Below, piece after piece: positions 7,271 through 64,000 of a DNA stretch of 64,000 nt. Below the pieces are notes generated by a model. It searched no databases and had not been told where the DNA came from. It worked only from the letters and a program-made list of their open reading frames with translations. The DNA lies in contig OZ004608.1 of assembly GCA_963924565.1 (NCBI GenBank), forward strand, positions 37,882,001 to 37,946,000, read 5' to 3'. The stretch's first letter is position 1, and each line of letters begins with the position of its first letter. The stretch comes from Ascidiella aspersa (Eukaryota). A program made the translations under genes and the position numbers.

Positions 7271-8516
7271 TATCTGCCATTTCGACTAATCGGCCAATAT
7301 TTGACCTATCATTTGCCCAGGTCTCGCTGTTCGGAAGACTGTGGGACAGGCACGGTGAGAAAAGCTTCATTCAAGCCTGTGGTGGGTAAAGCAAATGTTA
7401 CCCTTCGATAACTGTAAAAACACTTAATAATTTTGAATATTGTAAACCTTCCGCGGGCACCAATGCGCGAAGCACCACCTGTTGCATCAAAGTTGGTATT
7501 TAGTTTTCCCGCAAACGTGGTATGTCTGGGAATAAGTTTGTGTATTTAACAATTCCTAAACCACTGCTTTATGTATTTTCTTGTAGAAGACTGTTTGAGC
7601 ACGGACATTTGCTCCACCGACCAACGGACCGAGGAAAGAGGTATCCATTTCATATCAATTTTCCTCCCATAATCTTGAGGGCACACAAAGCAAAAACACA
7701 TTTCCTAAAGATGAAATTATAAACCATCAACAAAAAGAACAACCCATTATGATCATCAAGTTGACATCAAACTTACTTCTACTGTGAAAATACTAAAAAT
7801 GGTTTCAAATATGAACCAGAAACAAAGAGACGAAACTGAATAAACTACCAATTAAGGCAAGTCTTCTACTATTAAATATACATGCCAAGCAAATATATAA
7901 TAAATCTACTATATTTCTTAACTGCCAGTTTTATTTTTTTTTGCTATGGATTGTTTACCAATCACGTTTTATTACAGCAATATTAGAAAAATGTATCATA
8001 ATGTGGTATCGTGGATATTGGCAAAACGTCACTTGGCAAAAGGAAAAAAAAAAGGTCATACCCCTTTAAGTTACTGATGTATGACAAACTTATTTTATAA
8101 AAATCCCTTTAAAGTCCTTACCATCGGCATCACATCAATACTTGTGACACCCAAGCCAAAGTTCAGCCTTCATAGCGACGGAGGCCGCGCGTGCAACGCA
8201 CAAAACTATTGCAGGTAAAGCCAGTTAATAAACCCGTGTAGAGTTATAAATTTGTCTAATGCTTTGCGGAATTAACACAAAAAGGGTAAAATGTTATTGG
8301 AATTACATATTTAAAATTGCAGGCATCTGGTTTTCAAAGTTGCTTGGCGTTTTCCTGACAAATCTCCGGTATATAAACCAAAAGGTACTTTGTACAAATG
8401 ATCGTTCTGTGGAAGCTACTGAATTTCTCCTTTCAACCAACGAATACACACTTGTTAATTTTGATTAAAAAGATTTGTTTAATTTATCGACATTAATTTT
8501 CTGTCCGAACAAAACA

Positions 8517-9668
8517 ATGGGAGGTGTATTTTTCCGCACGTAGAAACGCAGTCCTAGTTTGGTAACTGTGACCCATTCGCGATTGCGAGTTCCTACTGAG
8601 GAAATACGACTCTCCTGGTCTTCCCGCATATGTTTGTACAGGTAGAGTGTATATAAGTTTGGTTTATTGATTAAAGTAGCATAGTTAGTTGTTTGGAAAC
8701 CTTGTTTAAAGCTCTAGTAAAGCAGTTGCGGGAAGCGAGTGAGCTGGAAGGTTCCTTTACCGAGATCCCACAAACGGATCCTTTATGTTTACGACAGCAA
8801 TGCTCGGAACTTAGTTGAGCCCTGCCTCGTAAGGCCCTCGTTCATGTTCGATGTATGTGCTATCAGTATTCCGGGGGGTACCACCAGGCATGGTATTACC
8901 GAGCTGTCCAACAGCAGGATACTGGATCGAGTTGCTGTCGTCGTTATTGGCCTTGGCACTAACGACGTAGTCAACAGCAGCCCGGAGGAAGCATCAGCCT
9001 CTCCTTCAAGGTATTGTCGAATAGTGTTTTGTTATTGTCTTTTTAGACTTATTTCTAAGATCTTGGAGGACACGAGAAGGCTGATCCGCCTCACTAAGGC
9101 GTTGTACCCAGGATCGAAGGTTGCTATGCCATGTTGTGTGTAGGACACGTTTTCGTTTGAAAACAAATCATTGTAGTCGCGATGCAAAGGCTCTGTTGTT
9201 GTAGTTGTTTATATAAAGCAACTGTCAATGTTTTTTTTTAATGCAAAGTGAATTGTTTGATGCTTGGCGCGTTTTAAAGCGCTGATCTAGAATCCTACCA
9301 ATGTTTTTACTGTGGAAACGAGTTGTCTAATTTAAAATTGCAAGGAAGAAATAAGCATGAAACATAAATATAAATTGCTGTATTTAGATCTTCCACACCG
9401 GGTTACTGCCCCATTTGACTCCACAGGGTTGCGTGGTGGAGCAACTGAACAGGGCATTAAAGGTCAGCGTCGAGGAAGAAGGGGCGGAGTCACTCGGGTT
9501 GGATGTCCCTTTTGCAAACAGGACGTGGGCTGACGGACTCCACCTTTCTCTAAGTGCTCTGTGGAAGTATTTATTAAAGATGGCATAATTACAAACATGT
9601 TGAACAAACCAGACCGCCAACACCCATTGCTGACGCTGACCAACTTCCCCCATCTTCCCACAAAGTTA
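8517..9668 (+). pseudogene. Spliced SGNH/GDSL-hydrolase gene, most complete copy (probable Helentron accessory gene)
   Basis: Block I YDSNARN, block II SIPGG, block III IGLGTND. GT-AG introns at 9011-9046 and 9120-9387. The exon from 9388 reads IFHTGLLP..VEQLNRALKVSVEEEGAE..WADGLHLS (block V DxxH). Early TAG at 8541; a 4-nt deletion gives a stop at 9586. Confidence 0.8.
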
Positions 9669-10004
9669 AGTAATATGTATGTTTAAAATCGATAAACGAC
9701 CAATCGACCAATATTTGATCTGCCATTTGTTTCCCAAATATCTCGCTGTTCGAAAGATTGTGGGACACGCACGGTGAAAAAAGCTTCATTCAAGCCTGTG
9801 GTGGGTAAAGCAAATGTTACCCTTCGATAACTGTCAAAACACTAATAATTTTGAATCTTGTAGACTTTTCCGCGGGAACCAATGCGCGAAGCACCGCTCG
9901 TTGCATCAAAGTTGGTCTTTTTTTTCCGCGAATGTGGTATGTCTGTGAATAAGCTTGTGTATTTATCATTTTCTAAAGCACTGCTTTATGTATTTTCTTG
10001 TATC

Positions 10005-11760
10005 AGACCGTGCCCATTTGCACTTTTTGAATGCCCATTGCACTTTTGAATTTTGTTCTTGTAAAGTTAGCCTCGATTTGTCACCTAATGCCAGTAAAAC
10101 AGTTAAGGTACCACACAGACAATTAAGGAACAGAAAGGGCGATATTGTTGCCTGCAGATTGAAGGGTGATAGAAGAACAGCCATGCAGGAAATTGGCTAA
10201 CATTTTGCCCCGCCGCTTTAACCTAACAATTTAGACAAGACGACCAAGTGGAAGAGTTGGGCAACCACGATAACGCGCCTATTTATAATGTTTCAAGACA
10301 AGCGAGGGCGGAAGTTAATAAAATAAAACTTCCTTCGAGTAAAGAAACCGACGCGATTAAGGCAATGCAAGTTGCACAAGCGGATAACTGTACAGGAAGC
10401 AAGTCCTCGTTGCCAGGGACCATTCGCTTTTTTTTTAAATGTTTTACACTGATGAAAACAAATTAGTTGCAAAACCGCTGTGCATCAAATCATTTGCGAT
10501 GTAAGCATGGCAATTATTCGGTAGCTATTTATACATGAGCCAGGATTTGGAAGCCTATTTAGATCGATGTTTTAGTTTCGTGACAGAAAGAGCAAGGCAG
10601 GAATTAAAATTCAAAAGGCAAGTCAATTTTGGAACATTTACTAGCAATTGCTTGGCGAAAATTGCTGGCCAAGCAACAAATACAATAAAGGACACAATTG
10701 TAATTGCATGTAAGTTGCTAGAGACGACGATGTTGTGGTGTAAAATATCAACTTCGTTTTACCCTAAGGGTTTTAATAAGCAAACTGGAGAATGGAAGTC
10801 TCTCTGCCTTCGTGATTACAGACCAACTAAACAGTGAGTTGGATACAAGCCACAACTATTTATAATGTTTTAAGACAAGGGTGAAGGTTATTAAAATACA
10901 ACTTCTTCCTTTTAGTAATGAAAACAGCGCGATTAAGGCAATGCAGGATGCGCAGGATAGAAACGTAGTTAAAACAAATCCGCGCTGGCAGGAGCCATTT
11001 GCTTTTATTAAAGCATTCCAAGTGGCCTTATGCTTTCTTTAAGACACGTTTAGGAATTTTTCATGAAAGAACACGAACCTACATTATGTTCATTAATGCC
11101 ACCGCGGAGGTATTACTGAAACTTCAGAGAGCAAACCGTAGTATTACGCGTATGAAATCTCTGTGCGTCACCTGGAATAATGTAAAACCTTTTGCCTTTG
11201 CAACTTTAAATTTGTTTTTACCGCACATCGGGGATCATGTTAACAAACCTCTAAGGCAAATAGCAATATTAACTGAGAAGGTTAACAGAGAAAAAAATAA
11301 TAAAAAATCGTGTCGTACAAACGCTACCTAAAAGTAAAGAGTAAAACAATTCACCGAGAGACAACAGGACGCAAGGGTTATGGAAAAGAATCGGCAGGAG
11401 TTTAGGCGAAGGCGGGGCTTCGGAAAGCGGTTTTGTAAAGTTACAGAGTTCGCGAAAGTATATGGCGATCAGAATGTTGCATTAGTTCGTGAGTTTGGAG
11501 ACAACATTCAGTCTAAATAATACAAAGAGCAGTCTTATCCCAGCAGGAGTAAAGCTGGGTAAACAAAACAAGAAGCAGGAGACAGTTGGAAAATATATCC
11601 TTCCTTCTCAAAGGCAACCACTAAAAGTAAGTAAAGATCAAAATTTATCTAAAGACAACAAGACGCGGTTATGGGGAAAGTCGGCGGGAATTAAACGAAC
11701 GCGTTGTTTCTGAAATCGGTTTTGTAACGTTGACAACCATAATAAAGCACTAGTTCGTGG
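10005..11760 (+). mobile_element. NOF/Foldback-like Mutator transposase, fragmented copy
   Basis: NAHCTFEFCSC..RLKGDRR, PGTIRF, QIICDVSMAII, YLDRCF, MFINAT, RTQG segments separated by deletions. Confidence 0.65.
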
Positions 11761-12969
11761 GTAAAGAAATAACAGGACAATATATCCAAGCTTACTTCAA
11801 AGGAGTTCAAAAAAAGCGAGCCCTAAAAAGCAGAAAAGTGTACGAGCAACAAAACAAAAAAGCACTCCTGAATTTGAAATACATTTAAAACATAATTAAG
11901 TATTTCCATAAATTCATGGAAGTCAATAAAATTGGGCGGCATTGCAACGCTTCCAACAATGAACATGACAGATGAATATATTTCCAAGCACATCAAGACA
12001 TTCACTACTACAGAGAGGCTGGCTAGATACCTGGAATAGACGTATTAAAGTGAATAAAATACTCAGAAGTGAAATTGAATGAGAATTTGGAAAGGGATAG
12101 AGGAAGACAATAAAAGCGCTGTCTTGGGCACGGCAAAAACATTTTCTACAAACAATATTCAGAATCGTATGTAAAAACCAAGAGGCCGGAACAATGACCG
12201 CAAGCAGGGAATCCTGGGAAAACCCAGCAGAGGTAAAAAAACTAGACACGGTCTCCACCGACCAACGGACCGAAGAAAGAGTGTTTTGCAAAACTATTGG
12301 TTGTCAAAGTAGGTGTGCTGAATCATCTAACTATATTTTCTTGTATAAGACCGTTGAGCATGTACTACTTCGACCAGTGGGCCGGAAGAAAGTGACACAC
12401 ACCCCTGCGATAAATGGTAAGTGTTTTTGCAAATATTTTTTCCAATCATCACCTTAATTTTACCAACGTATTCACTTTTTGCAGCCTATGAAACGACTTT
12501 ATGGCGGGGCCCGTATGGTAGATCAACAGGATGATAAAATTAAATGAAAAAGAGCGCGCGATTGAATCTTTTAATTTTGATCGTTCGTGTGGTGCTAGCT
12601 GGGTCACTTTATTAGGCAAATTGAAGAACGAAAAATGTTAAAGAAATAAATTAGGTATGAAGTTCGTATTCTTAAGAATTTTGTTGCGCAACATGCTAAC
12701 GAGTTTAAAATTCGAGGCAAGGAGACATTTGTCAGTTCAATGTGATAAAAAAACTAGTGATGTGTTTTGTGAAGAAAATTGTGGTAGTAGCAGCGGTGCT
12801 TCGGATGTTGAAATTAGTGAGGATGAGATTTGTAGTGAACCAATGTTGTGTGATAGTCCAGTTGGTTAAATGTTGTCATGGGACAAAGATGAGCCAGATC
12901 TGTCAAAAAATATAAGTTGCGAATTTTCGGACTCCTGACAGTAAGACATCGCGACAACATACATTTGAT

Positions 12970-14060
12970 TCCACTAAAACAATCTGTAGTTGGTCGACGT
13001 TTCACTAATAAAAATTGGTGTTGCGTGTTTCGTCAACCGTACAAAAACCGTAACCCTTTCTGTAGTTTTTGGTTCAAGACATTTCTGGAATCATGAAAAT
13101 AGTAAAACTCGTGCTTTTCATCGTGATGCCCATTGTACTTTTGAAATTCCCACTTGTTAGCATCGATTTGTCACCTAATGCCAGTAAAACATTTAAGGTA
13201 TTACACAGGCAAGGCACAGAAAGGGCGATATTGTTGCTTGCAGATTGAAGGGTGATAGAAGAAAAGAAATGTATGAAAAGTTGGCTAACATTTTGCCTCG
13301 CCGCCTTAACCTAAACAATTTAGACAAGTTAGACGACCAAGTGGAAGAGTTGGGCAACAACGATAACGCGCCTATTTATAATGTTTTAAGACAAACGAGG
13401 GCGGAAGTTAAAATAAAACTTCCTTCGAGTAAAGAAACCGACGCGATTAAGGCAATGCAAGTTGTACAGGCGGATAAATGTACAGGAAGCAAGTCCTCGT
13501 TGCCAGGGACCATTCGCTTTCATTCTAAGTAGCCTTATGGTTTGGTCGTTCGATACTTTACGCATTTTTTACGAAAGAACTAAAACAGATATTATGTACA
13601 TCGACGCCACAGGAGGTATTATTAAAGCTTCAGAGAATAAGGCGCAGTATTACGCGTATGAAATCTTTGTGCGTCACCCGGCCAAGGAAGCGAGCAGTCA
13701 TAACATCAGTCACAACAACATCGTTTCCATTTCGAATTTTTTTTTAAATGTTTTACACGGATGAAAACAAATTAGTTGGAAAACCTCTGTGCATCAAATC
13801 ATTTGCGATGTAAGCATGGCAATTATTCGGTAGGTATTGTCAGTGTACATGAGCCAGGATTCGGAAGCCTATTTAGATCGATGTTTTAGTTTAGGGACAG
13901 GAAAAGCAACTAATTCAGCAAGCTATTTGTTCATTGTGTGGTAGCAACACTAGGAATAAGAAAACGTGGTCTTGTTCTTTAGACAAGAAACTATATTTGT
14001 AATGGTTTGTGGACTCTAATAGCAACATCCTATATCACATGGTAATCTTATTTAGCAAAA
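12970..14060 (+). mobile_element. NOF/Foldback-like Mutator transposase, fragmented copy
   Basis: NPFCSFWF, RLKGDRRK, DIMYIDATGGII..YYAYEIFVRHP..SHNIVSISNF, QIICDVSMAII. The YIDATG and CDxS motifs carry the first two catalytic Asp of MULE-type DDE enzymes. Confidence 0.75.
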
Positions 14061-15179
14061 AAAAAATAAATGTCAGCGTTGAGGAAGAAGGGGTGGAGTT
14101 TCTCAGGTTGGAAGGCCCTTTTGTGAACGGGAAATATCTTACTCTAACCGATAGCAGATTTAAATTCAGGCAAAAAAGTAGTTTGCTATTTTAACAGAGA
14201 CATACAAGGAATTGGTATCTAACAAGGTGCTCAGATTGGGACATCGCACTTTTGCAGGAATCCATGAGAGCCCCAAAAACTACCAGAAAGAAGAACTATG
14301 ACAGGGAGTGGGCTGCAACATCAACATGCGATGATACAACATCAGGCAATAGAAAAGACTACAACCCACAATAATATATTCCACTAACAACTACTATATG
14401 AAGAAAGCGTCAGTCAAACTGACCTTTCTAGTGGCTTGGTTTTACAACATATTAAGCAAATAAGACTGGTTAAAATTTAAGGTATACGCAAAGGTGAAAT
14501 GTGTGCATTCCTTAACGTCAGACAAAGAGTTATGTTATAAAAACTTTAATAAACCTAAATATATCACAATGTGGTAAAGTTAAGTATATGCTTGGAAGGA
14601 AATATTTATTAAACACTTGTTTTATAAAAAATCCCTTTTAAGCACTTACCATCGGCATGGCACCAACACTTTGCTTTATTATTTACTAATCAATTTATAT
14701 TTTCAGTTATTCACCTTACCCCAAACACCGAAGGCAAAGTTCAACCTTAATGGCGACGGAGGCCGCGCGTGCAACGCACAAAAACTCGTGTCGGCAAATG
14801 TTGTTTTATTATAGTTTCTTTGAGGAAGTGCGAGTGGCAATCACTGATAAAAGTATTGGGAAATGCATGTAGTTGACTTTGTACCTGCAGGTATCTGCGT
14901 TTTCTTTCGAAAAAAAAACAGTTACGCAGCGTTGAAGCAACCTGGCTTGAATGTCTTTTTAAGTTTGCATTTTCCCGGTTTTAATAACATGGTTTTGCAT
15001 TTTATTTGAATTAAGACATGAATTCACTTGTGTAAGCCTTTGTGTTATTAACTAATTCCCGTACACCGGTGTTATTTTTTTAGTAAGGGTTTCCGCAAAA
15101 TGTTTGGAATGATGAGGTTATCTAGGTTTTGCGACAAAGATGAATATTAATTATCTTTTGTGGTTGAAAACAATGTTTG

Positions 15180-15410
15180 CTCTTCGGACAGCAATGCCCG
15201 GAACTTAGTTGAGCCCTGCCTTGTAACGTCTCGCCCAAACTTTTGCGTTCCATGTATGCGCCGTCAGTATTCCGGATTGTACAACAAGACATGGTATCAC
15301 CGAGCTGCCTAACAGCAGAATACTGGATGGAGTTGCTGCCGTCGTTATGCCAGGGAGCTTTCCAGCATTATACGTGGGAGCTAAAATAATGAATCTTTTA
15401 TGTTACTTGT
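15180..15410 (+). pseudogene. SGNH exon fragment (copy), duplicated at 16071-16270
   Basis: DSNARNLVEPCLV..SIPDCTTRHGITEL; same 3' junction (ATGCCAGGGAGCTTTCCAGC) as the 16071-16270 copy. Confidence 0.75.
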
Positions 15411-15425
15411 CACCAATTTAATTAT

Positions 15426-16070
15426 TGTAGCCCCTTTGTGCGGAATGAATGCCGCGGGAACTGCCGTCCAGGTCGGCTACCCGTCGCCACAGTTTCCCCT
15501 CGGGGATAGAAATTTGTGTGAATTTCGCAGCCTAAGTTTTCCCAGCGCTGCGTGATATCTTTGTGTGCGATTTCGTTTTGAATTGCGTTGTGTTGCATCG
15601 TCATTCGTCGGGTGGATACCGAGAGAATCGGATGCATTTTGAGCACAGTTTGCAATCTCGTTGGTTAGAGACAAGCTGTAGCCTTATGCGAGCACTTGGT
15701 GTGCATGGTTATTTGCCGTATACTGATTGTCGTTCTGTCCAATAAACGTCTTGCTCGAGAAAGTAAAGTCATTCCTATCCTTGGCAGCTACTTTGGGGAT
15801 TGTGTCCCAATCTAGTCTGCGACAATTGCGGGCTCGTCCGGGAATTTAAACAAGGTTTGACTAAAGAGACCTCTTCAAGACGTAGTAGAAATGGACAAGA
15901 TAATCGAGGCAGGAAAAGCATGGGACTTCCAGGTAATGACCTGGTGAAGTTCGTGCAGGATCAGCAGCAGCTGCAGATGAGAAATCCATAAAAGCAGCGG
16001 CAGCCGCCGAAGAATAGCGGGCCGCCAGAGAAGCTCCGAGAGAAAACGAGTTTCGGTTAGAAATGAATCG
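15426..16070 (+). mobile_element. Gypsy-like LTR (15426-15824), PBS-Pro (15827-15843) and 5' gag stub (from 15891)
   Basis: TGTAGC...GCGACA ends; internal AATAAA; TGCGGGCTCGTCCGGGA closely resembles the tRNA-Pro PBS TGGGGGCTCGTCCGGGA; gag-like MDKIIEAGK/MGLPGNDLVKFVQDQQQ. Confidence 0.75.
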
Positions 16071-17089
16071 GTTGAGCCCTGCCTTGTAAGGTCTCGCCCA
16101 AACTTTGCGTTCGATGTATGCGCCGTCAGTATTCCGGGTTGTACAACAAGGCATGGTAACACCGAGCTGTCTAACAGCAGAATACTAGATGGAGTTGCTG
16201 CCGTCGTTATGCCAGGGAGCTTTCCAGCATTATACGTGGGAGCTAAAATAATGAATCTTTTTTGTTATTTTACATTTGATCTTGAAGCCTTACGAAGAGA
16301 TTGTATCCAGGAGGTCACTTTTAAGTGGAGGTCACGTTTTGGTTGTGAAACTAATCATTGTAATTTGTTGAGCTTCATTGAAGGGCGAAGTTCCTCTGGT
16401 TGACAACAACGGAGTTTTCCTTGTTGGGACCCCTGACACCTTGCTCTATGAACCAGAAGGCCAAGCACTTAAAGGTAACGCTTTTTTGTAGTTTTGCGTT
16501 CGAAGACATTGCTGGAATCATAAAAATAACAAAACTCTTGCTTTTCACCGGAATGCCCATTGCACTTTTCGAAAATAAAGGGCGATATTGTTGCCTGTAG
16601 ATTGAAGGCCAATAAGAAAAGAAATGCTTGAAAAGTTGGATAATGTTGTAGGAGTCCGGCAATAGGGATAACGCAGTTACTTGCAATGGATCCTGGTCGG
16701 CTCACGCAGAGCATGCCGTTGAACTTCGACACTGAATGTATTGTCGACCGGAAACCGCAGCATGATGGGACGTCTAATCTATTTCGTTAATTATTTGTTT
16801 TATACAAAGTGCAATGTTCATGCGAATCGTTTTATATCGGCGAAAGCAAACGAGTAGTGTACAAAAACTAACAGCTGTGGGTACAAGATGTCTTGCGCTA
16901 GATATTCTACAAGTAAAAAAAAAACAGGTCAAGTGGTTCATACCACTAGTAAAAACCTGAATGTGTGTTTACTGGACACGGTAATGTCGGTGCTGCCCAA
17001 ACAATTTTCGCAGGAATGTTTTTTTTAATAAATATGCTGTTGGTACCAGGCATAGGTACAGCGCCGTTACCACTCCACTTAGATGTTGT

Positions 17090-17300
17090 CCGATGGTTTA
17101 TATTGGCGCGAAAGAAAAGAACATATTCGCGACGTGAATAACAACGACGCCAAGAAGTCAGCCTTGGTGCAGCACGCCTGCAATCGTCAACACGGTATTA
17201 ATTTTGATGGGGACGCTGTTGTTGCAACGAGAGCGACTACCGAAAACGTCTGTTTCGGGAATCCTGGCATATACACCAAAGGCCGGATACCATGAACATC
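17090..17300 (+). mobile_element. Penelope-like GIY-YIG endonuclease C-terminal fragment
   Basis: RKEHIRDV..KSALVQHACNRQHGINFD..RLFRESWHI (frameshifted). Confidence 0.75.
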
Positions 17301-17569
17301 AAAACGGACGTTTAATTTAGGGAGATTAATGGCATGGTAGTGACTTTGTACGAAACAAAAATAATACAAAGCGTAACAGAATGCAACTAGCAATCCCGGT
17401 ATTTTGTATTTGTCGTTTGGCCTATAGACCTAATAAAAATTAGTGTGGAATGCTGCTCTTAAAGTGGGCAAAACAAGCGGAGTAAAGTAGGGAAACAAAC
17501 TGCTCAACATTGTTGGATCGACAATGAACGGTGAAAATCGTTGAATATTATTATTTGGACAAATGTATA

Positions 17570-17895
17570 CGAATCATGGCAATGAAACAACATTGGAAAC
17601 AATTGCAAATCAACAGAAGACTTTGTTGAAAAGTTTCCTCACAAACTTCGACAGATGTAGAGGCATAACTTTACTAGCAAACAGGCCAGTTGCTTGCAAC
17701 ACTTAAAATAGTACAATTAGCTTCTATCTTGCAATTATTGGTTATTTGGCAGAAAATTATTCATTTGTGTTGCAAGATACAGTACATGGCTTTGCATTTT
17801 AATTTGTCGTAATTTCACACTGCTTGAAACATGACAAAACAGAAGTTGATTGTCATTAAAGGGACCACGCGATTGGCTGGGTGGCACTGTTAAAA
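17570..17895 (+). mobile_element. Heavily deleted Sola2 transposase relic
   Basis: TTLETI..EDFV, RHNFTSKQ, IIGYLAENYSFVLQDTVHGF and KGPRDWLGGTVK occur in the same order as the motifs of the 395-2293 protein. Confidence 0.7.
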
Positions 17896-18859
17896 TGGGA
17901 TTTGCACACGGGCAAACACGAAGAAGAAGACACACAAACTCGTAATATAGTCAGAAAGTTGTGCCGACTATTTTTAGAAAAAAAATGTTTAAAACAACAA
18001 GTACTATTCAAACCCATATTTGGTAAACCATTTACCACAAAGACACTGGCCTTAGCGGGACAGTACATTACAGAAAGGGACTGCACTGCTAATTGAAATA
18101 ACCACAACAACATTGTAAAAAGTAACACGATTAAACAAATTCTATAAAGACCGCAGTTAAATACAATTTTGAGGATAAAGCCTTGTGAGCCTTTCCGGCG
18201 AACACTCGACGTTTAATGCACCAGAATTCCGTACATATGTTCGCTAAAACAGAGTCTAAAAGGAGGTTAACGGTGTGAACGAAAACAAGCTTGGCAAACT
18301 TTGTATACTTCCTTCAAGTTTCACTGACAGCCCTCCATACATGCATGAACGGAAACCGACGCAATGACATATGTTCGCGTTTTGGTATACCGGATCTTTT
18401 CATAAGGTTATTAAGAAATTAGCAGAAACTCCTTCCGGGCCAACATTACGTCCACCGGCATGATTTAACTGCGAGAGTTCTTCACTTCTCTGGGCAACGT
18501 ATTTATTTCACAATGCTGCATTTTAATATAAAAAAACATTGCTCTTTCGTATTATACATGGAGCAGAACATATTATATATCTGGGCGACATCGAAAAGCA
18601 TAATTTCTTGACCAGTCGTCGTAAAAGTGTTATCGGAAGCAACGGGGAAAGGGTATTCCCGCAGATATCACTAAGTTCAATGTGGAGTATTTGCAATATG
18701 TTTCAACTCTGCTTTTATTACACTAGTCTTTTAAGTGGCCACAAACCGGCTTTTTTTGCAGGAAGACAGTTGAGTTATCGTGTAGAACTAGGCCTAAAAT
18801 TCAGCGACATTTGGCGTAAATGGTCAGATGAGCTTTGTTATTGCGAACCTAAAACGCGG

Positions 18860-20100: not shown

Positions 20101-20142
20101 GACAAGTAGAAGGGAAATTATAATTTCCTTAAATAAGACATC

Positions 20143-30758: not shown

Positions 30759-30926
30759 TTACTCAAATGGATTGGAATGAAACGGAACGAGTTTCCAGTA
30801 GTTTGAAGCATATGGACTCGAAATGACAAGTCTCCACCGTTTTTCATCAACGTTATAAGCAGAGATGCTTGCACTCGAATCGAAAGCGCTGAAAACAAAC
30901 AAATAAAGCAAAACGTGCCCCCTTTC

Positions 30927-30961
<35 letters not shown>

Positions 30962-38790: not shown

Positions 38791-38861
38791 GTTTGGGTGA
38801 GGGTGGGTCAAGTAATATTATGGTTATTATTAATAATAACTTGACCCACCCTCAACCAAAC
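38791..38861. repeat. Short inverted repeat / collapsed MITE
   Basis: GTTTGGGTGAGGGTGGGTCAAGT / ACTTGACCCACCCTCAACCAAAC (22/23) around an AT spacer. Confidence 0.8.
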
Positions 38862-54100: not shown

Positions 54101-54829
54101 TTGGCTTCAAGGATCCACATGACCTCACCTCCCCAAGGGCCTCTACAAGACTGTCCTGATGATATTGGATGTCAAGGATTGCTACCACATTGGCTTAAAA
54201 TATCCCAAGTAGAAAGTAGAACGACTGCTTGAAAATACATTTTCGAAAAGCCAGTGCTTCGTGACTACGAACGCGAGTACAAACGGCTGGACATCGTTAA
54301 GGACTGGTGTAACATGTTCGGCTCGTGTTTCAAGGCGGATTCTACGAAGGCATTTGTTTTATCTAGCTAGCGTCGCGTATTGTACACGTGCAACGAGTGC
54401 TTTCTTTTAGGCACTGCAATTAGGGGACCAGCATCTGCAACTAAAAGGGTGAGATTGTTGCGTCGTCACTGAGAGCGAGAACAAGGCCTATTGGGGTTTC
54501 AAGGAAGGTCGGACCAGGCTCTACTAATTTCTCAGGGTGGTGGAACCCTTTACCATCTGTGACGCTGACCGGAATCCGCGTTCGATCTCCTCCAGTGAAA
54601 GAGGCATTAAAACCGACGTTAAGAGTTGGAAGTAACGGTCTTTTCGTCCGACCTCCATTTTACCGATCTGAGCTCGCCCCAACTGCCATTTACCCCCCGG
54701 TAAATTTGGCGAGCTCGAGCGCTCACTGGAGAGGACAGTCCCTCGCTGGTTCCACCACCAAAACTCGTTCGCGCTAACCCCGTATAACCACGTTTAATAC
54801 AAAATGAATACTTTTGAAATTCATTAGCG

Positions 54830-55690
54830 AAGAGGACCCAGAGCTGCACGAAATGGCGGCATCCTTGCAAATGCATAGCAAGCGGCATACCGCTTCTTGT
54901 AGAAAGGGTGGGAAAGTTTACGGGTAAGCATCCAAAAACTTAAAAATGTTATGTATGATTTACTTTGTTTAGACTTAACTTCCCTCGTCCCGTCAGTTTA
55001 AAAACCTTTATTTGCATCACGCGCTGAAAAAACAGATAAAAACGAAATACATTAAGTCAAGGGAAGATCTGTTGGCGGTCCGCAATGCGTTGGATGCATA
55101 CGAAAGTCTATGCAACAACAGTTTGCAACTTCTGGGTGATATATTATAGGTTAAGTTGATATAGTTGAAGTGTTATTAAAATAGCTATTTTTGTAAATAT
55201 ACTTCTACAAGACAGGTGTCGCATTTTGTGATTTTCTTAATGCCATGAATAGTTTTGGCCAAAAAGGAAACCGTTATTTTGGAACCTGAACCAGACGAAT
55301 GTTGAGTGAACGCATACAACCAAGAGCTGTTCCGAGCGTGGAATGCAAATATGGGATATTCTGTACATCCGGGAAGTGAACATTATGGAAGCTGCGTATC
55401 GAGGTGTAAAAAATTACAGGAGGGCGTTTTGAATGAATGATGCGAGTAAAAAAGTAGTTTACGAGCAAGTTCATGATGCTCATCGCCTTGCTCGATATGC
55501 CGTGTGAGGGTGTACCTGCTTCAATACCTAGTAAATGTAAATGCTGAACTATTCCTTGCGCTTGTATGGTCGCGAAAGCAACGTCACTGCTCAGAAAAAA
55601 CTAGAGGCGAAGAGTAGATTGCGCCAGTTTTCGCGAAGATGTAAACCAATAATATATTTACTTGAAAGGGTACCGACCTCCAGCAAAGCA
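54830..55690 (+). mobile_element. Helentron (Helitron2) Rep-domain fragment with spliceosomal introns
   Basis: EDPELHEMAASLQMHSKRHTASCRKGGKV, intron 54924-54972, LNFPRPVSLKTFI, then KKETVILEPEPDEC*VNAYNQELFRAWNANM(D)ILYI. These match the Helentron Rep motifs QxHxxxHxxSCxK..CRFNFP and VNxYNxxLLxAWNANMDIQY. Confidence 0.8.
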
Positions 55691-55692
55691 GT

Positions 55693-56285
55693 ATGGTAGA
55701 GGCAATTGCGGGAAGCAAGTTAACTGGTAAGCTCCTGTACCGAGCTCCCGCAAACGGCTCCTCTGTTTCCGACTGCAATGCTCGGAACTTAGTTGAGCCC
55801 TGCCTCGTAAGACCCTCGTTCATGTTCGATGTATGTGCTATCAGTATTCCCAGGGGTACCACCAGGCATGGTATTACCGAGCTGTCCAACAGCAGGATAC
55901 TGGATGGAGAAGCTGCCGCCGTTATTGGCACTAACGACGTGGTGGTCAACATCAGCCCGGAGGAAGCAGCGGCCTCTCCTTCAAGGTATTGTTGAATAGT
56001 GTTTTATCTTCCAAACCGGGTTACTGCCCCAGTTGACTCCACAGGGTTGGGTGGTGACTAGACATGGCCTAAAAGGTCAGCGTCGAGGGAGGAGGGTCGG
56101 AGTTCCTCGGGTTGGAGGACCCTTTTGCAAACGGGGCGTGGGCTGACGGACTCCACCTTGTTCTAAGTGCCCTCCCGGAAGTATTTATTAAAGATGGCAT
56201 AATTACAAACATGTTTAACAAACCAGACCGCCAACACCCATTGCTGACGCTGACCAACTTCCCCCATCTTCCCACAAAGTTAAGT
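55693..56285 (+). pseudogene. SGNH-hydrolase gene copy directly downstream of the Helentron Rep fragment
   Basis: SDCNARNLVEPCLVRP..IGTNDVV..SPSR then gt; followed by GLLP..PFANGAWADGLHL. Confidence 0.75.
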
Positions 56286-57731
56286 AATATGTATGTTTAA
56301 AATCGGATAAACGACCAATATTTGACCTATCATTTGTTTTCCAGATATCTCGCTGTTAGATTGTGGGACACGCACGGTGAAAAAAGGTCATTCAAGCCTG
56401 TGGTGGGTAAAGCAAATGTTACCCTTCGATAATGCATCAAAGTTGGTCTTTGGTTTTCCCGCGAAAGTGGTATGTCTGTGAATAAGCTTGTGTATTTATC
56501 ATTTTCTAAACACTGCTTTATGTATATTCTTGAAGAAGACCGTTGGAGCACGGGCTTGTGCTCCTTCGACTAGCGGGACGAAGAAAGTGACACCCACCCC
56601 TGTGGTAAATGTTTTAGCAGAAGAAAAACCTTCGATAACTGTAAAAAAATAATGATTTTGAATTTTATAGACATTTCCAGGGCACCAAGGAATGAAACAT
56701 CGTCCGTTGTATCAAAGTTGGTCTTTGGTTTTCCCGCGAATGTGGTATGTCTGTGAATATGCTTGTGTATTTATCATTTTCTAAACACTGCTTTATGTAT
56801 TTTCTTGCAGAAGACCGTTGGAGCACGGACATTTGCTTCACCGACCAACGGACCGAGGAAAGAGGTATCCATTTTATATCAATTTTCGTCCCCTAATCTT
56901 GAGGGCACACAAAGATGAAATTATAAACCATCAACAAAAAGGACAACCCATTATGATCATCAAGTTGACATCAAACTTACTTCTAACTATGGAGATACTA
57001 AAAATGGTTTCAACCATGAACCCGAAACAAAGAGACGAAACTGAATAAACCGCCAATTAAGACAAGTCTTCTACTATTAAATATACATGCCAAGCAAATA
57101 TATAATAAATCTACTATATTTCTTAACTGCAAATTTTAATTTTTTTGCTATGGATTGTTTACCAATCACGTTTTATTACACCAATATTAGAAAATGTATC
57201 ATAATGTGGTATCTTGGATATTGGCAAAACGTCACTTGGCAAAAGGAAAGAAAAAAGGTCATACCCCTTTAAGTTACTGATGTATGAAAAACTTATTTTA
57301 TAAAAATCCCTTGTAAGTCCTTACCATCGGCATCACATCAATGCTTGTTATTCACCTTACCCCAAACACTCAACCAAAGTTCAGCCTTCATAGCGACGGA
57401 GGCCGCGCGTGCAACGCACAAAACTCTTGCCGGTGAAGCCAGTTAATAAACCCGTGTAGAGTTATAAATTTGTCTAATGCTTTGCAGAATTAACACAAAA
57501 AGGGTAAACTGTTATTGGAATTCCATATTTAATATTGCAGGCATCTGGTTTTCAAAGTTGCTTGGCGTTTTCCTCTGACAAATCTCCGGTATGTAAACCA
57601 AAAGGTACTTTGTACAATCATTCTGTGGAAGCTACTGAATTTCTCCTTTCAACCAACGAATACAGACTTGTTAATTTTGATTAAAAGATATGTTTAATTT
57701 ACCGACATTAATTTTCTGTCCGAACAAAACA

Positions 57732-58682
57732 ATGGGAGGTGTATTTTTCCGCACGTAGAAACGCAGTCCTAGTTTGGTAACTGTGACCCATTCGCGATTG
57801 CGAGTTCCTACTGAGGAAATACGACTCTCCTGGTCTTCCCGCATATGTTTGTACAGGTAGAGGGTATCTAAGTTTGGTTCATTGATTAAAGTAGCATAGT
57901 TAGTTGTTTGGAAACCTTGTTTAAAGCTCTAGTAAAGCAGTTGCGGGAAGCAAGTGAGCTGGGAGGTTCCTTTACCGAGCTCCCACAAACGGATCCTTTA
58001 TGTTTACGACAGCAATGCTCGGAACTTGGTTTAGCCCTGCCTCGTAAGGCTTTCGCCGAACTTCAGGTTCGATGTATGCGCCGTCAGTATTCCGGGGGTA
58101 CCACCCGGCATGGTATTACCGAGATGTCCAACATCAGAATGCTAGATGGAGTTGCTGTCGTCGTTATTGGCCTTTGCACTAACGACGTAGTCAACAGCAG
58201 CCCGGAGGAAGCATCAGCCTCTCCTTCAAGGTATTGACGAGTAGTGTTTTTTATTGTCTTTTTAGACTTATTTCTAAGATCTTGGAGGACACAAGAACGC
58301 TGATTCGCCTCACTACCCTGGATCGAAGGTTGCTATATGCCATTTTGTATGTGGGACACGTTTTGGTTTGAAAACAAATCATTGTAAATTGCTGAATTTA
58401 GATCTTTCACACCGGGTTACTGCCCCAGTTGACTCCACAGGGTTGCGTGGTGACTAAACATGGCCTAAAAGGTCAGCGTCGAGGAAGAAGGGTCGGAGTT
58501 CCTGGGGTTGGAGGTCCCTTTTGCAAACGGGACGTGGGCCGAGGGACTCCGCCATTCTCTAAGTGCTCTGCGGAAGTATTTATTAAAGATGGAGGGCATA
58601 ATTACAAACAAGTTGAACAAACCAGACCGCCAACCCCCATTGCTGACGCTGGCCAACTTCTCCCATCTTCCCACAACGAAGG
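57732..58682 (+). pseudogene. Spliced SGNH-hydrolase gene copy
   Basis: Same ATG and in-frame TAG (57756) as 8517/8541. Keeps KMEGIITNKLNKPDRQPPLL..PTTK then gtaagt, a frame disrupted in the left copy. Confidence 0.75.
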
Positions 58683-59024
58683 TAAGTAAATATGTATGTT
58701 TAAAATCGATAAACGACTAATCGACCAATATTTGAGCTATCATTTGGTTCCGAAATATCTCGCTGTTCGAAAGATTGTGGGACACGCACGGTGTAAAAAG
58801 CTTCATTCAAGCCTGTGTGAGTAAAGCAAATGTTTCCCTTCGATAACTGTAAAAACACTAATAATTTTGAATATTGTAGACCTTCCGCGGCCACCAAGGA
58901 GCGAAGCACCACCCGTTGCATCAAAGTTGGTCTTTAGTTTTCCCGCAAATGTGGTATGTCTGTGAATAAGCTTGTGTTTTTATTATTTTCTAAAACACTG
59001 CTTTATGTATTTCCTTGTAGAAGA

Positions 59025-60300
59025 CCGTGCCCATTTGCACTTTTGAATTTTGTTCTGCCAGTAAAACAGTTAAGGTACCACACAGACAATGTAAGGAACA
59101 AGGGCGATATTGTTGCCTGCAGATTGAAGGGTGATAGAAGAACAGCCATGCAGGAAATTGGCTAACATTTTGCCTCGCCGCTTTAACCTAAACAATTTAG
59201 ACAGACAAGTTAGACGACCAAGTGGAAGAGTTGGGCAAATGTTTTAAAAGACAAGCGAGGGCGGAAGTTAATAAAATAAAACTTTTGCATGTAAGTTCGA
59301 TGTTGTCGTTTTACCCTAAGGGTTTTAATAAGCAAACCGGAGGATGGAAGTCTCTCTGCCTTCGTGATTACAGACCAACTAAACAGAGAGTTGGATAATA
59401 AAAGGGTGAAGGTTATTAAAATACAACTTCCTTTTAGTAATGAAAACGGCGCGATTAAGGCACTGCAGGATGCGCAGGCACAGAAACGTAGTTAAAACAA
59501 ATCCGCGCTGGCAGGAACCATTTGCTTTTATTAAAGCATTCCACGTGGCCTTAATCTTTTTTTCGCTAAGACACGTTTACGAATTTTTCATGTAAGAACA
59601 CGAACCTACATTATGTTCATTAATGCCACCGCGGAGATATTACTAAAACTTCAGCGAGCAAATCGTAGTATCACGCGTATGAAATCTCTGTGCGTCATCT
59701 GGAAAAAATGTAAAACCTTTTGCCTTTGCAACTTTAATTTGTTTTTACCGCACCATGTTAACAAACCCGTAAGGCAAATAGCAATATTAACTGAGAAGGT
59801 CAACAGAGAAAATAATTAAAAAATCTGTCTTTGGACAGCTTGTTGCTAGGTGATTTGGGCCGACACAGAAAGGACGAGTCGAGTAAAAGTCATCGAAAGA
59901 CAAAAGGACGCAAGGCGTTATGTAGAAGAGTCGACAGGAGTTTAAGCGAACGCGGTGCTCCGGAAAACGGTTTTGTAACGTTGCCGAGTTCGCCAAAGTA
60001 TACGGCGATCAGAATGTTGCACTAGTTCGTGAGTTTGGAGACAAGATTCAGTCTAAATAAAAAGAGCAGTCGTATCGCAGGAGTAAGAAGCTGGGCAAAC
60101 AAACCAAGAGACAGTTGGAAAATATCTCCTTCCTTCTCAAAGGCAACCACTAAAAGTAAGTGAAAACCACAATTTATCGAAAGACAACAAGACGCGGTTA
60201 TGGAGAAAGATTGGGCAATAATTAAAAGAACGAGTTGTTGCTGAGCTGAGTGATAGAAATGTTGATACAATGATGAACATTATGCAACACATTTTGCCAA
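59025..60300 (+). mobile_element. NOF-like Mutator transposase fragments
   Basis: RLKGDRR, MFINAT, LLLGDLGRH and RTQGVM segments. Confidence 0.6.
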
Positions 60301-61289
60301 AATTGTGAGTTACAAAGCACTCGCACATCAAGACATTCACTACTACAGAGAGGCTGGCTAGATACCTGGAATAGACGTATTAAAGTGAATATAATACTCA
60401 GAAGTGAAATTGAATGAGAATTTGGAAAGGGATAGAGGAAGACATAAAAGCGCTGTCTTGGGCACGGCAAAAAACATTTTCTACAAACAATATTCAGAAT
60501 CGTATGTAAAAAATCAAAAAATGCCGGAATAAACGTTTGCACGCAGGAATCCTGGGAAAACCCAGCAGAGGTAAAAAAATTAGACATGTGCTCCACCGAC
60601 CAACAGACCGAGAAAAGAGGTATCCACCCCTGCGGTAAGTGTTTTGCAAAACTATTGGTTGTCAAAGTAGGAGTGCTGAATCATCTAACTAGATTTCCTT
60701 GTAGAAGACCGTTGAGCACTCCTTCGACCAGCGGGCTGGAGAAAGTGACACACAGCCGTGCGGTAACGGTAAGTGTTTTTACAAATATTTTTCCCAATTA
60801 TCACCTTAATTTTATCAACGTATTTACTTTTTGCAGCCTATGAAACGACTTTATGGCGGGGCCCGTATGGTTGATCAACAGAATGATAAAATAAAATTGA
60901 AAAAAAGCGCGATTGTATCTTTTATTTTGATCGTTCGTGCGGTGCTAGCTGGGACACTTTATTAGGCAAATTGAAAAAACGAAGAAAAATGTCAAAGAAA
61001 GAAATTAGGTATGAAGTTCGTATTCATAAGAATTTTGTTGCGCAACATGGTAACGAGTTTGAAACTCGCGGCAGGAGATTTTGTTAGTTCAATGTGATAA
61101 CTAGTAGTGATGTGTTTTGTGAAGAAAGTTGTAGTAGTAGCAGTGGTGTTTCGGCTGTTGAAATTATTGAGGATTGAGCGTTGTGGTGAACCAACTTTGT
61201 GTGAGAGTCCAGTTAATCAAGTGCCGTCATGTGACAAAGATGAGCCAGATCTGTCAAAAAATATAAGTTGCGAATTTTGGACTTCTGGA

Positions 61290-62450
61290 AATCCACTAAA
61301 ACAATCTGTAGTTGGTCGACGTTTCACTAATAAAAATTGGTGTTGCGTGTTTCGTTAAGCGTATAAAAAATGTAACCCTTTCTGTAGTGTTAGGTTCGAA
61401 AGACATTTCTGGAATCATGAAAATGGTAAAACTCGTGCTTTTCATCGTAATGCCCATTACTTTTGAAATTTTGCACTTGTAAAGTTAGTATCGATTTGCC
61501 AACTAATGCCAGCAAAACATTCCAAGTTAATTACACGGGCGATGTAAGGCACAGAAAGGGCGATATTGCTGCATGCAGATTGAAGGGTGATAGAAGAAAA
61601 GCCATGCAGGAAATGTTGTCTAACATTTTGCCTCGCCGCCTTAACATAAACAATTTAGACAAGTTAGACGACCAAGTGGAAGAGTTGGGCAATCACGATA
61701 ACGCGTCTATTTATAATGTTTTAAGACAAGCGAGGGCGGAAGTTAATAAAATACAACTTCCTTCGAGTAACGAAACCGACGCGATTAAGGCAATGCAAGT
61801 TGCACAAGCGGATAAATGTACAGGAAGCAAGTCCTCGTTGCCATGAACAATTCGCTTTCATTCTAACATACCAAGTAGCCTTCACTTTGGTCGTTGGATA
61901 CTTTACGCATTTTTCACGAAAGAACTAAAACAGATATTATGTACATAGACGCTACAGGAGGTATTATTGAAGCTTCAGCGAACAAAGCTCAGTATTACGC
62001 GTATGAAATCTTTGTGCGTCACCCGGCCAAGGGAACAGTCACAACATCGTTTCCATTTCGAATTTTTTTTTAAATGTTTCACACGAATAAAAAAAAAATT
62101 ATTTGAACAACCGCAGTGCGTCAAATCAATAGCGATGTAAGCATGGCAATTATTCGGTAGCTATTGCCAGTTCATATTAGCCAGGATTTGTAAGCCTATT
62201 TAGAGTGATGTTTTAGTTTTAGTAACAGGAAAAGCAACTAATTCAGCAAGCTATTTGTTCATTGTATGGTAGCAACACTAGGAATAAGAAAACGTGTTCT
62301 TGTTTTAAAGGGCAAGAAACTATGTTTGTAATGGGTTTGTGGACTCTATTTAGCATAAAAAAATAACATTTAAGTAGTGAAAATTAGCTGGACACGGCTA
62401 AAAGTACAAATTGCGCGAAATCAGCATATTTCAAATTTTAGTTTAAAAAC
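61290..62450 (+). mobile_element. NOF-like Mutator transposase, longest readable copy
   Basis: NKNWCCVFR..NPFCSVRF, ORF 61463-61846, then DIMYIDATGGII..YYAYEIFVRHPAKG..SHNIVSISNF..SDVSMAII. Confidence 0.75.
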
Positions 62451-64000
62451 TAATCATAATTTGCCAACTTCGATCGTCCATAACGGTGTACTGCCCCAGT
62501 CGACTCCAACAGGGTTACAGGGCATTATCGGGTTGGAAGGCCCTTTTGTGAACGGAAAATATCTTACTCAAACCCTAAGGGAACTCCTGGAATTACTTTT
62601 CAAAGATGGAGGGCATAATTACAAAGATGGTAAAGAAACCAGGCCGACAACCCACAAGAGAACGCTGAAGAAACTCAAACTCCACGTGGTTGTAATGTTT
62701 GAAAGTGACCGTAGCATGAAACATGCCAGCACCATCAACGCGAGGTCTTGAGAAGTTTGTATTTACCCGACGGCAAGTGCTGTTGCAAAACTTTTAGCAA
62801 AAATTCCCATCGCTAAACGACTGGATAGCAGATTTAAATTCAGGCAAAAAAGTAGTTTGCTATTTTAACAGTGACATACAAGGAATTTGGATCTAACAAG
62901 GTGCTCAGATTGGGACAGCGCACTTTTGCAGGAATCCATAAGAGCCCCAAAAACTACCAGAAAGAAGAACTATGACAGGTTCTTAGTGGGCCGCAACATC
63001 AACATGCGATGATACAACATCAGGCAATAGAAAAGACTACAACCCACAATAATATATTCCACCAACAACTACTATATGAAGAAAGCGTCAGTCAAACTGA
63101 CCTTTCTAGTGGCTTGGTTTTACAACATATTAAGCAAATAAGACTGGTTCAAATAGAAGGTATTCGCATGGTGAAATGTGCGCATTCCTTAACGTCAGAC
63201 GAAGAGTTATGTTATATGGTGGCGACACTACTGTCGAGTATCATAAAGCAGTCCTATTGAATTTGAAGCCAACATTCTTAGAACTGTGCATACACCTTTC
63301 TGAAGTTATAACACATACGATCATCAAGTTAACATCAAACTTACTTCTACTATGGAAATACTAAAAAATGTACTGAATAAACCACCAATTAAGACGAGTC
63401 TTCTATTACTAAAATACATGCCAACCACCAATTAAGACGAGTCTTCTATTACTAACATACATGCCAAGAAAATATATAATATAACTTATTTCCAGACTGC
63501 AAATTTTAATGCAAAAAGCACTTTTCTTTACATGCTTTGTTGCCATGAAATGTTTACCAATCACGTTTTATTACACTAATATTTAAAAGTAATATATATA
63601 TATGCAAAACTTTAATAAACCTAAATATATCACAATGTTGTTTTCTTATAGTTTTTTTGAGCAATCCTATTTCGTTTTTGGAAATTTACTCCGTAAAAGA
63701 AACGTAAGAGAACCAAAACTGGGTCGTCAGACCAAGCGCGAGTGGCAATCACAGAGTTACGAGGTATCTGTGTTTTCCTATATCCACCAAAAAGGTACAT
63801 TTGTACTAAACAAAAAACAGTTAGGCGAAAAAAAAGCAGTTAGGCGGCGTTGAAGCAACCTGGCTTGAATGTCTTTTTAAGTTTGCATCTTCCCGGTTTT
63901 AATAACATGATTTTGCATTTTATTTGAATTAAGACATGAATTCACTTGTGTAAGCCTTTGTGTTATTAACTAATTCCCGTACACCGGTGTTATTTTTTTA

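Follow-up and report, generated by a model that had tools for sequence, protein, structure and literature searches.

Direct copies of a decayed-transposon mosaic flanking two kelch genes in Ascidiella aspersa

Segmental duplications, or low-copy repeats (LCRs), are stretches of at least 1 kb with at least 90% identity that occur in at least two copies (Campbell et al. 2014, PMC4195946). For human meiotic NAHR, repeats of at least 10 kb, identities above 95% and perfectly matching tracts of 300-500 bp are quoted (Gu et al. 2008, PMC2583991; PMC4195946). The criteria for mammals put these tracts at about 200-500 bp, with exceptions noted in which they are under 50-114 bp (PMC2583991). Genes for SGNH hydrolases, with their four defined catalytic blocks, have been described as carried by Helitrons and CR1 elements (Tomaszkiewicz et al. 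2014, PMC4021074).

Here we analyse a 64-kb stretch of DNA from Ascidiella aspersa, called the window in the following, in which two kelch genes lie between long direct repeats. Our verdict is that the repeat pair is an ordinary transposon-seeded segmental duplication. In the explanation that we prefer, and to which we assign a probability of roughly 0.47, the repeats stem from one scrambled block, made of the remains of a decayed transposon, that was duplicated once by a homology-driven template switch or an ectopic crossover between older fragments that flanked an already ancient kelch pair, and they have since diverged. The features of the locus are collected in Table 1.

Table 1. Positions of the repeat copies, element fragments and genes in the window
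Feature	Position	Strand	Remarks
Copy 1 of duplicated mosaic	7,402-15,082	+	self-alignment of window
Copy 2 of duplicated mosaic	56,629-64,000	+	self-alignment; match open at window end
SGNH gene in copy 1	8,517-9,588	+	putative exon 1 bears shared TAG (8,541-8,543)
SGNH exons in copy 1	8,726-9,010; 9,047-9,119; 9,388-9,588	+	stop-free, GT-AG ends
SGNH gene in copy 2	57,732-58,591	+	upstream TAG 57,756-57,758, private TAG near 58,032, frameshifts, deletions
MULE-like transposase fragments, subtype a	10,030-11,186	+	deletion common to copy 2 links them to module X; copy 2 partner 59,040-59,714
MULE-like transposase fragment, subtype b	12,960-14,020	+	copy 2 partner 61,290-62,350
Partial unit left of copy 1	3,667-7,640	+	modules W, KR, Z; period about 6 kb
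Divergent transposase N-terminal piece	6,356-6,529	+	within partial unit left of copy 1
SGNH cassette L0	6,902-7,640	+	within partial unit left of copy 1
SGNH cassette R0	55,702-56,611	+	directly left of copy 2; recombinant patchwork relative to copies 1 and 2
Further element fragments right of copy 1	15,183-20,010	+	
SGNH pieces right of copy 1	15,183-15,408; 16,070-16,270	+	
Transposase pieces right of copy 1	16,471-16,643; 18,850-19,430	+	
Protease piece right of copy 1	19,790-20,008	+	
BTB-BACK-Kelch gene A	30,759-36,987	-	12 exons, start and stop read by eye
BTB-BACK-Kelch gene B	41,033-48,135	-	12 exons read by eye; paralogue of A

The repeat pair and its make-up

The two copies are direct and colinear, with about 41 kb between them, and the measured offset of 48.2-49.2 kb bears out the separation of about 49 kb given in an earlier note on this DNA. 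That note also put their length at about 7.5 kb. Both copies are indeed present, and the figure has to be read as a minimum, as does our own value of at least 7.4 kb, since the match runs off the window with its final 90 nt perfect and its final 175 nt 97% identical. The right end of the copied tract lies beyond the window and the match is still strong at the window edge, which makes its end, as placed in the preferred explanation below, less secure. The window contains 145 self-matches, compared to 0 in three block-shuffled windows.

A global alignment of the two copies has 5,892 matches and 758 mismatches, i.e. 88.6% identity over 6,650 aligned pairs, or 70% when all columns are counted. The copies are far from near-identical, with 87 indel events in addition to this unfiltered divergence. 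After removal of gap-adjacent columns and then of poorly aligned zones, which kept 5,485 of 6,131 pairs, 370 pairs differ (6.7%; 93.3% identity). The differences are unevenly spread, with 3-25 per 200 sites (chi-square p 3e-5), and the longest perfect runs are 160, 90 and 86 nt, the first of them at 8,488-8,647 of copy 1. With this amount of substitution, this number of indels and no perfect run above 160 nt, the repeats are old. By size and number, at least 7.4 kb in two copies, the pair falls within the definition of a segmental duplication given above, and with respect to the 90% identity limit it lies at 93.3% over the 5,485 filtered pairs and at 88.6% over all 6,650.

It is very improbable that the two copies are haplotypes of one highly polymorphic locus that have been assembled in series. 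The uneven divergence and the many large indels do resemble alleles of very heterozygous invertebrates, and a published account of false segmental duplications born of heterozygosity counts Ciona savignyi among the problematic genomes (PMC2864568). The copies described there are adjacent, however, while those considered here are 41 kb apart in a window without any N gap, and the patchwork with the third cassette R0, discussed below, requires real paralogues.

In each copy, the remains of one decayed element form a scrambled mosaic that comprises a spliced SGNH-hydrolase gene and pieces of a MULE-like transposase. The modules of the mosaic recur three to seven times nearby, always in the same orientation, and about 61% of the multi-copy bases of the repeat occur at least three times within the window. 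None of the 145 self-matches is inverted, all being direct, and the 14-mer pairs are distributed similarly (5,163 direct vs 31 inverted), which argues for a local head-to-tail origin and not for a separate insertion of each piece. The protease piece to the right of copy 1 presumably belongs to the Ulp1/C48-like family. An Rfam search gave 0 matches.

The SGNH gene of copy 1 misses the cut-off for Pfam Lipase_GDSL_2 (E 0.0013); its relatives match this family down to E 2e-10. When it is aligned to these relatives, the S, G, N and H catalytic blocks (DSN, PGG, GTND, DGLH) fall in the stop-free exons, and a 36-nt intron fits a 12-residue gap. The earlier note had pointed to a TAG present in both copies as a shared inactivating mutation. 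The TAG is common to both, in frame with an upstream ATG, but the label "inactivating" is unsupported, because it sits upstream of the family's conserved start, 34 codons ahead of the beginning of the SGNH homology, and the exons with the catalytic blocks in copy 1 are free of stops. Among the 8 best relatives, just 2 have more than 21 residues ahead of the start of that homology. The peptide following the TAG was compared with the N-terminus of 18 relatives and matched none (best shuffle p 0.054; two without a testable N-terminal part). We rejected the TAG as a dating marker on account of its position and because there is no third copy to polarise it. The TAG near 58,032 and the frameshifts of copy 2 are absent from copy 1.

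The subtype b transposase fragment retains, in broken frames, an N-terminal domain, the motifs YIDATG and ICDVS, and a degenerate CxxH. We take the first two motifs to be of the acidic DDE type. Pfam searches over all 369 ORFs of at least 55 aa and 27 selected ORFs gave no transposase family and no MULE match, and a PDB sequence search with the transposase gave nothing significant. Word-based searches are weak negatives here, that with the transposase piece (148 candidates) yielding no homologue and that with the C-terminal domain of relative P0003 yielding the query itself alone. A weak atlas lead points to ALS2CR8/FAR1/FLYWCH/GCM-like clusters, with a score of 0.91 and a recognition of 2046, which is below 2300.

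In the relative P0003, from Styela clava, SGNH is joined to the transposase N-terminal domain that is seen at 6,356 and 61,305 in the window, and in P0001 it is joined to a PHD finger (Pfam E 3e-8) and to the protease domain seen at 19,790. These fusions tie the SGNH, transposase and protease modules to one element. A check for PHD in one window frame near 19.9 kb gave a weak match. Neither long TIRs nor a TSD of 8-11 bp was recovered for the parent element in the window; as the element is fragmentary, this lowers its membership of the MULE/Rehavkus group, not its resemblance to it. As a side lead, the SGNH gene may be cargo of a MULE/Rehavkus-like element. Our literature search, with Repbase and most subscription journals outside its scope, found no SGNH cargo for MULEs.

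How the block was copied

The earlier note used the TAG to place the duplication after the decay of the element. This order of events stands, and it is supported by other evidence. The deletion junction between module X and the transposase, checked against ancestral copies, is common to the two copies, and both interleave the transposase subtypes a and b in the same order. The subtypes are 23-27% apart, compared to 5.8% for subtype a pairs and 7.2% for subtype b pairs across the copies. The block was thus copied after it had been scrambled. An automatic count of common junctions (48 sites) was discarded, as a break in a third copy mimics the signal. Of the 13 module pairs, 8 join positional counterparts that are each other's nearest neighbours, marginally so in one case. 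The other 5 do not, as would also be expected if a larger family were dispersed elsewhere in the genome.

True orthology between the copies begins at about 7,484-7,605 of copy 1, inside module X. The first 80 nt of copy 2 have 13 private differences, compared to 2 of 214 sites in module U (Fisher p 1e-6). Over the 108 sites that follow, copy 2 is closer to R0 than to copy 1 by 8:1 (p 0.04), with copy 1-like sequence afterwards. An excess of changes private to copy 1 in X is not significant alone (p 0.16). The first 80 nt derive from another X lineage, and the left edge is a hybrid with no clean terminus. An edge inside a repeat module is what is expected of homology-driven copying.

Ectopic exchange between the repeats, which the earlier note had proposed as a possibility, has occurred. 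In the SGNH cassettes, partner switching gives 53 runs vs 77 expected, a result reached in 0 of 10,000 permutations, and the indels are incompatible with a tree, copy 1 and R0 having one derived deletion in common and copy 2 and R0 another. The three cassettes swapped tracts after the copying.

Relationships that are not tree-like could also reflect unseen copies, for instance if the mosaic were itself mobile, as a Pack-MULE-like or Helitron-like non-autonomous element that has many unlinked copies, two of which had inserted here, perhaps by local hopping. The content of the mosaic is wholly transposon-derived, with modules at 3-7 local copies, and fish Helitrons are known to carry SGNH genes (PMC4021074). 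We nevertheless find this scenario unlikely. A Helitron Rep scrap at 18,260-18,410 is weak (Pfam E 0.095), falls outside the repeat and occurs once in the window, and Pfam detected no Helitron Rep or helicase inside either copy. At the left edge, which lies within a module, the copies differ from each other, so that they have no common terminus, and terminal inverted repeats were found at neither edge (no long inverted pair among the 25 longest of 246 pairs; 0 inverted BLAST matches). The same two observations speak against the composite transposon suggested in the earlier note.

In the preferred explanation, a single duplication of transposon debris, a large DNA transposon with an SGNH gene, a DDE transposase and an Ulp1-like protease would have sat at the locus, been amplified head to tail with a period of about 6 kb, and then decayed by deletion. 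The decayed and rearranged block is present twice, with the same junctions. The hybrid left edge suggests that copying began inside the common module X, and the copied tract, mostly transposon debris, would have ended before the kelch genes. Copies 1 and 2 and R0 later swapped the tracts described above. The kelch genes, much older and holding no repeat pieces, would be bystanders, and the repeats would now offer recombination little opportunity to delete or duplicate these genes.

The kelch pair and the possibility of a larger unit

Two kelch genes are indeed found between the repeats. In both, Pfam matches to BTB, BACK and Kelch_1 score above the cut-offs, with the domains in order. Over the nine exon pairs compared, 230 of 494 aligned residues are identical (46.6%). 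The intron positions agree where checked, the introns are unalignable, and the DNA matches between the genes are exon-sized only, apart from one 44-nt inverted scrap. No match was found between the 26-51 kb region and either flank, and the window holds no third kelch paralogue, young paralogue or fragment. A word-based search with the gene-B BTB exon (7 candidates) gave no relative, which is a weak negative, and a literature search on tunicate kelch expansions gave nothing relevant. Judged by this divergence, the pair are ancient paralogues, much older than the duplication. The idea that the repeats gave rise to the pair is thus not sustained.

It is important to consider that the hybrid junction in module X would equally fit an unequal crossover of the full 49 kb. 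Copy 2 would then be the start of a second tandem unit, formed by an old crossover between X modules, and a second kelch pair would be located at about 80-97 kb. The match continues up to the window end, perfect over the last 90 nt, the repeats have demonstrably exchanged sequence, and NAHR with short perfect tracts is documented for diverged HERV pairs that had been screened for an identity of at least 94% (PMC4195946). We consider this possibility somewhat unlikely, because no such unit precedes copy 1, where only 88 of 6,900 nt match at an offset of 47.5-50.5 kb, in two non-colinear scraps, and because the window shows no young kelch copy, the existing pair being far too old to have been made by this route. 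The window also offers no evidence that the kelch genes were amplified by a rolling circle or form circles, as the earlier note had suggested they might.

A bolder version is, in our view, quite unlikely. Here, a hitherto undescribed Rehavkus/MULE-like tunicate transposon with its own spliced SGNH gene would have left decayed copies that seeded the unequal crossover of the whole 49 kb, and a second kelch pair, about 93% identical, would lie just past the window, with a copy number still variable among individuals.

Relative to the mammalian criteria for NAHR, the copies have the direct orientation but lack both the identity above 95% and the perfect tracts of about 200-500 bp. By these rules they are a poor recombination substrate, and present-day crossover between them is predicted to be rare.

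It is common for transposon-seeded segmental duplications to flank old tandem paralogues, and the locus as it stands has little significance. If the duplication runs through the kelch genes, it would provide a dated case of transposon debris driving the growth of the BTB-kelch family in an invertebrate. The finding would also matter more if the parent element is of the MULE/Rehavkus type with an SGNH cargo gene.

Comparison with known systems

Genes A and B resemble tandem BTB-BACK-Kelch (KLHL-type) paralogues in their ordered Pfam domains and common intron positions, and differ from them in being highly divergent and in the gene-B BTB exon, which has no relative by the weak word search.

The element shares with the Rehavkus group of Mutator-like elements (Dupeyron et al. 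2019, PMC6446971) an extra cargo ORF and motifs that we assume to be of the acidic DDE type. The Rehavkus PHD finger is matched by relative P0001; the window gave no more than the weak match near 19.9 kb, and its element differs also in that no Pfam MULE match, TIRs, TSD or intact ORF was found. SGNH cargo is absent from the examined part of the element table in PMC6446971. The texim SGNH genes of fish Helitrons (PMC4021074) are likewise multicopy and transposon-associated, with four catalytic blocks. Their neighbour is Rep/helicase, whereas that of SGNH here and in P0003 is a MULE-like transposase domain.

Pack-TIRs and FoSTeST in animals (Tan et al. 2021, PMC8277862) involve local, homology-aided template switching in DNA transposons and duplications without transposition, and are in this respect similar to the copying proposed here. 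Pack-TIRs, however, hold host DNA (median 224 bp) between the ends of TIR elements, while here it is transposon debris that was copied, and the repeats on either side of the 41-kb kelch interval are direct and not inverted.

Compared to the LCR pairs of human NAHR (PMC2583991; PMC4195946), the repeats are shorter and more diverged (at least 7.4 kb, about 93% or 88.6% unfiltered identity, 160 nt longest run), consist wholly of transposon debris and showed no rearrangement product. Like those pairs, they are direct, multi-kb, intrachromosomal and gene-flanking, with a junction in a common repeat and a conversion-like patchwork.

The direct repeats and their shared stop codon

Aligning the window with itself confirms the colinear direct copies at about 7.4-15.1 and 56.6-64 kb that the earlier note had described, called copy 1 (c1) and copy 2 (c2) here; the real window gives 145 self-matches, against none in three shuffled windows. 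As the homology between c1 and c2 is still open at the window end, 7.5 kb is a minimum length. Their global alignment has 5,892 matching and 758 mismatching positions, interrupted by 87 indel events, and with gap-adjacent columns and poorly aligned zones removed the divergence is 6.7% (5,485/6,131 pairs after filtering). This divergence varies along the block more than an even spread would allow (p = 3e-5). The longest stretch of perfect identity, 160 nt, exceeds the expected length (permutation p = 0.007), reflecting either recent conversion or constraint. That the duplication is a haplotype artefact, a type of false duplication described in PMC2864568, is very improbable: the window contains no gap of Ns, and the copies are not adjacent.

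Both copies do carry the same TAG, which had been read as an inactivating SGNH mutation that dates the duplication. It is located eight codons past an ATG and 34 codons ahead of the start of SGNH homology, and this upstream codon cannot serve as a date. Among the eight best relatives, the N-terminus lies 13-21 residues ahead of the homology point in six and 31 and 35 residues ahead of it in the other two; the intervening peptide matches the N-terminus of no relative. In c1, the three exons downstream of the TAG are open, have GT-AG ends and retain all four SGNH blocks (S, G, N and H, as defined in PMC4021074). The locus is an animal one, with spliceosomal introns, and probably belongs to a tunicate, to judge from one named relative (Styela clava). 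The SGNH exons of c2 contain a stop and frameshifts not common to c1.

A mosaic of transposon-like modules

The block is a mosaic of recurring modules, with ca 61% of its multi-copy bases present in at least three copies within the window. All 145 self-matches are direct, the 14-mer pairs are 5,163 direct vs 31 inverted, and the offsets peak at ca 6.0 and 3.0 kb in the left-hand part and at ca 2.2 kb in the right-hand part. A spliced gene for an SGNH hydrolase makes up one set of modules. Its main exon, used as the query, retrieved 18 relatives, most of which match Lipase_GDSL_2 (Pfam). In a Styela clava relative (P0003), SGNH is joined to a domain matching 6,356-6,529 and 61,305-61,439, just upstream of transposase-like pieces. 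These have broken frames and carry YIDATG, ICDVS and a degenerate CxxH, motifs that we take to be of MULE/Rehavkus type. Another relative, P0001, combines SGNH with a PHD finger, a feature listed for Rehavkus (PMC6446971), and with a protease-like domain whose counterpart lies at 19,790-20,008.

The ORFs searched have no Pfam match to a MULE domain, no TIRs turned up among the longest inverted pairs listed, a word search returned no homologues of the transposase pieces, and the atlas search gave a weak lead only. "MULE-like element with SGNH cargo" is the name that suits the parent best, denoting resemblance rather than membership. A dispersed mobile composite is improbable, being without termini. 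The literature searched gave no description of SGNH cargo in MULE/Rehavkus-like elements, and PMC12273014 pointed only to the Helitron case; the apparent cargo is the one lead worth pursuing.

Features of the window
Feature	Position	Strand	Evidence and reading
c1	7,402-15,082		direct, colinear with c2
c2	56,629-64,000		direct, colinear with c1
Shared TAG	8,541 (c1); 57,756 (c2)		
160-nt perfect tract	8,488-8,647 / 57,703-57,862		spans putative SGNH exon 1
Kelch A	about 36,987-30,759	minus	BTB, BACK, Kelch exons by Pfam; ends and 12 exons by eye
Kelch B	about 48,135-41,033	minus	BTB, BACK, Kelch exons by Pfam; ends and 12 exons by eye
Minisatellites, 41-42 nt	34,284-34,732		in kelch A intron
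Duplicated exon 5' end, kelch B	43,512-43,569 / 43,880-43,937		368 nt upstream, 89.7%; better splice acceptor in upstream copy (by eye)
Hairpin, 26 nt	38,791-38,861		between kelch genes; 92% complementary; possibly MITE remnant
tRNA-Thr(AGT) call	37,263-37,339	minus	ARAGORN; no Rfam match; related copies 37,177-37,222 and 35,818-35,941; likely tRNA-derived SINE
Short exon-like segments	26,600-27,800	minus	downstream of kelch A; splice-like ends; no Pfam match; possibly another gene
Intact 632-aa ORF	395-2,293	plus	upstream frame 1-420; closest to atlas cluster 'Cc8L18.2-like protein' (score 0.96); transposase-like family, presumably Chapaev/CMC-type; fragment recurs at 17,733-17,798
Second, independent scrambled direct duplication	20,588-25,334		period 1.5-1.9 kb; scraps match 51,117-51,185; no Pfam match
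Broken frames	4,063-4,600; 16,790-17,320	plus	by eye, resemble Penelope-type reverse transcriptase, GIY-YIG endonuclease; no Pfam match
Helitron Rep-like scrap	18,260-18,410	plus	Helitron_like_N, E 0.095; single-copy in window
Two SGNH pieces, 201 nt	15,208-16,270		95% identical, either side of ~660 nt resembling, by eye, an LTR end, a primer-binding site and the beginning of gag
Decayed coding region	53,884-55,500	plus	DUF6729, E 1.6e-4, below cut-off; probably another DNA transposon
R0 (SGNH cassette just left of c2)	55,702-56,587		

The kelch pair, the order of events and the copying

Kelch A and B, the two BTB-BACK-Kelch genes between the copies, are identical at 230/494 residues over nine aligned exon pairs. 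Their DNA similarity consists of exon-sized pieces (70-91%) and one 44-nt inverted scrap, and the introns do not align. Set against the 6.7% divergence of the repeat, the pair is therefore much older and did not arise from it. The window contains no third kelch paralogue or fragment, the region 26-51 kb has no sequence in common with either flank, and the window offers no sign that the kelch genes were circularised or amplified by the suggested rolling-circle route.

In both c1 and c2, the recurring module X is joined directly to transposase by the same deletion, vs longer continuations in other X and transposase copies of the window. Two subtypes of transposase piece, a and b, also follow each other in the same order; across the copies the subtype pairs diverge by 5.8% and 7.2%, vs 23-27% between a and b. 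This common junction and order show that the block was copied after the element had decayed; the proposed order of events thus holds, with the TAG being no evidence for it.

Eight of the 13 positional c1/c2 pairs are reciprocal nearest neighbours, and the five that are not reflect exchange among copies. Within the SGNH cassette, the nearest partner of c1 alternates between c2 and R0 (53 runs vs 77 expected; 0/10,000 permutations), a patchwork which, like the common junctions, is observed directly. One derived deletion is common to c1 and R0 and another to c2 and R0, with which no tree is compatible. The left edge of c2, inside module X, has 13 private sites within its first 80 nt (p = 1e-6 vs module U), followed by a tract leaning 8:1 to R0 (p = 0.04) and then by c1-like sequence; sites private to c1 show a counterpart excess that falls short of significance (p = 0.16). 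The edge is a hybrid inside X.

The reading we prefer, at a probability of roughly 0.47, is that part of a head-to-tail cluster of decayed transposons was copied again to the other side of the kelch pair, starting in module X. The initiating event, which we infer, would be either a template switch guided by homology or an ectopic crossover, beginning in X, with conversion-like exchange among the copies afterwards; the end point of copying is likewise conjectural. Local template switching is described for animal DNA transposons (PMC8277862). The main rival, that c2 opens a second 49-kb copy of the tandem unit suggested in the earlier note, is rather unlikely; an earlier unit upstream is ruled out, with 88/6,900 nt matching at the right offset, non-colinearly.

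In sum, this is a segmental duplication of an ordinary kind, old and seeded by transposons, whose copies lie on either side of two ancient kelch paralogues. Human NAHR substrates are usually at least 10 kb long with >95% identity and perfect tracts of 300-500 bp, with exceptions (PMC2583991, PMC4195946); measured against these norms, which may not carry over to invertebrates, c1 and c2 fall short as substrates for present-day NAHR.
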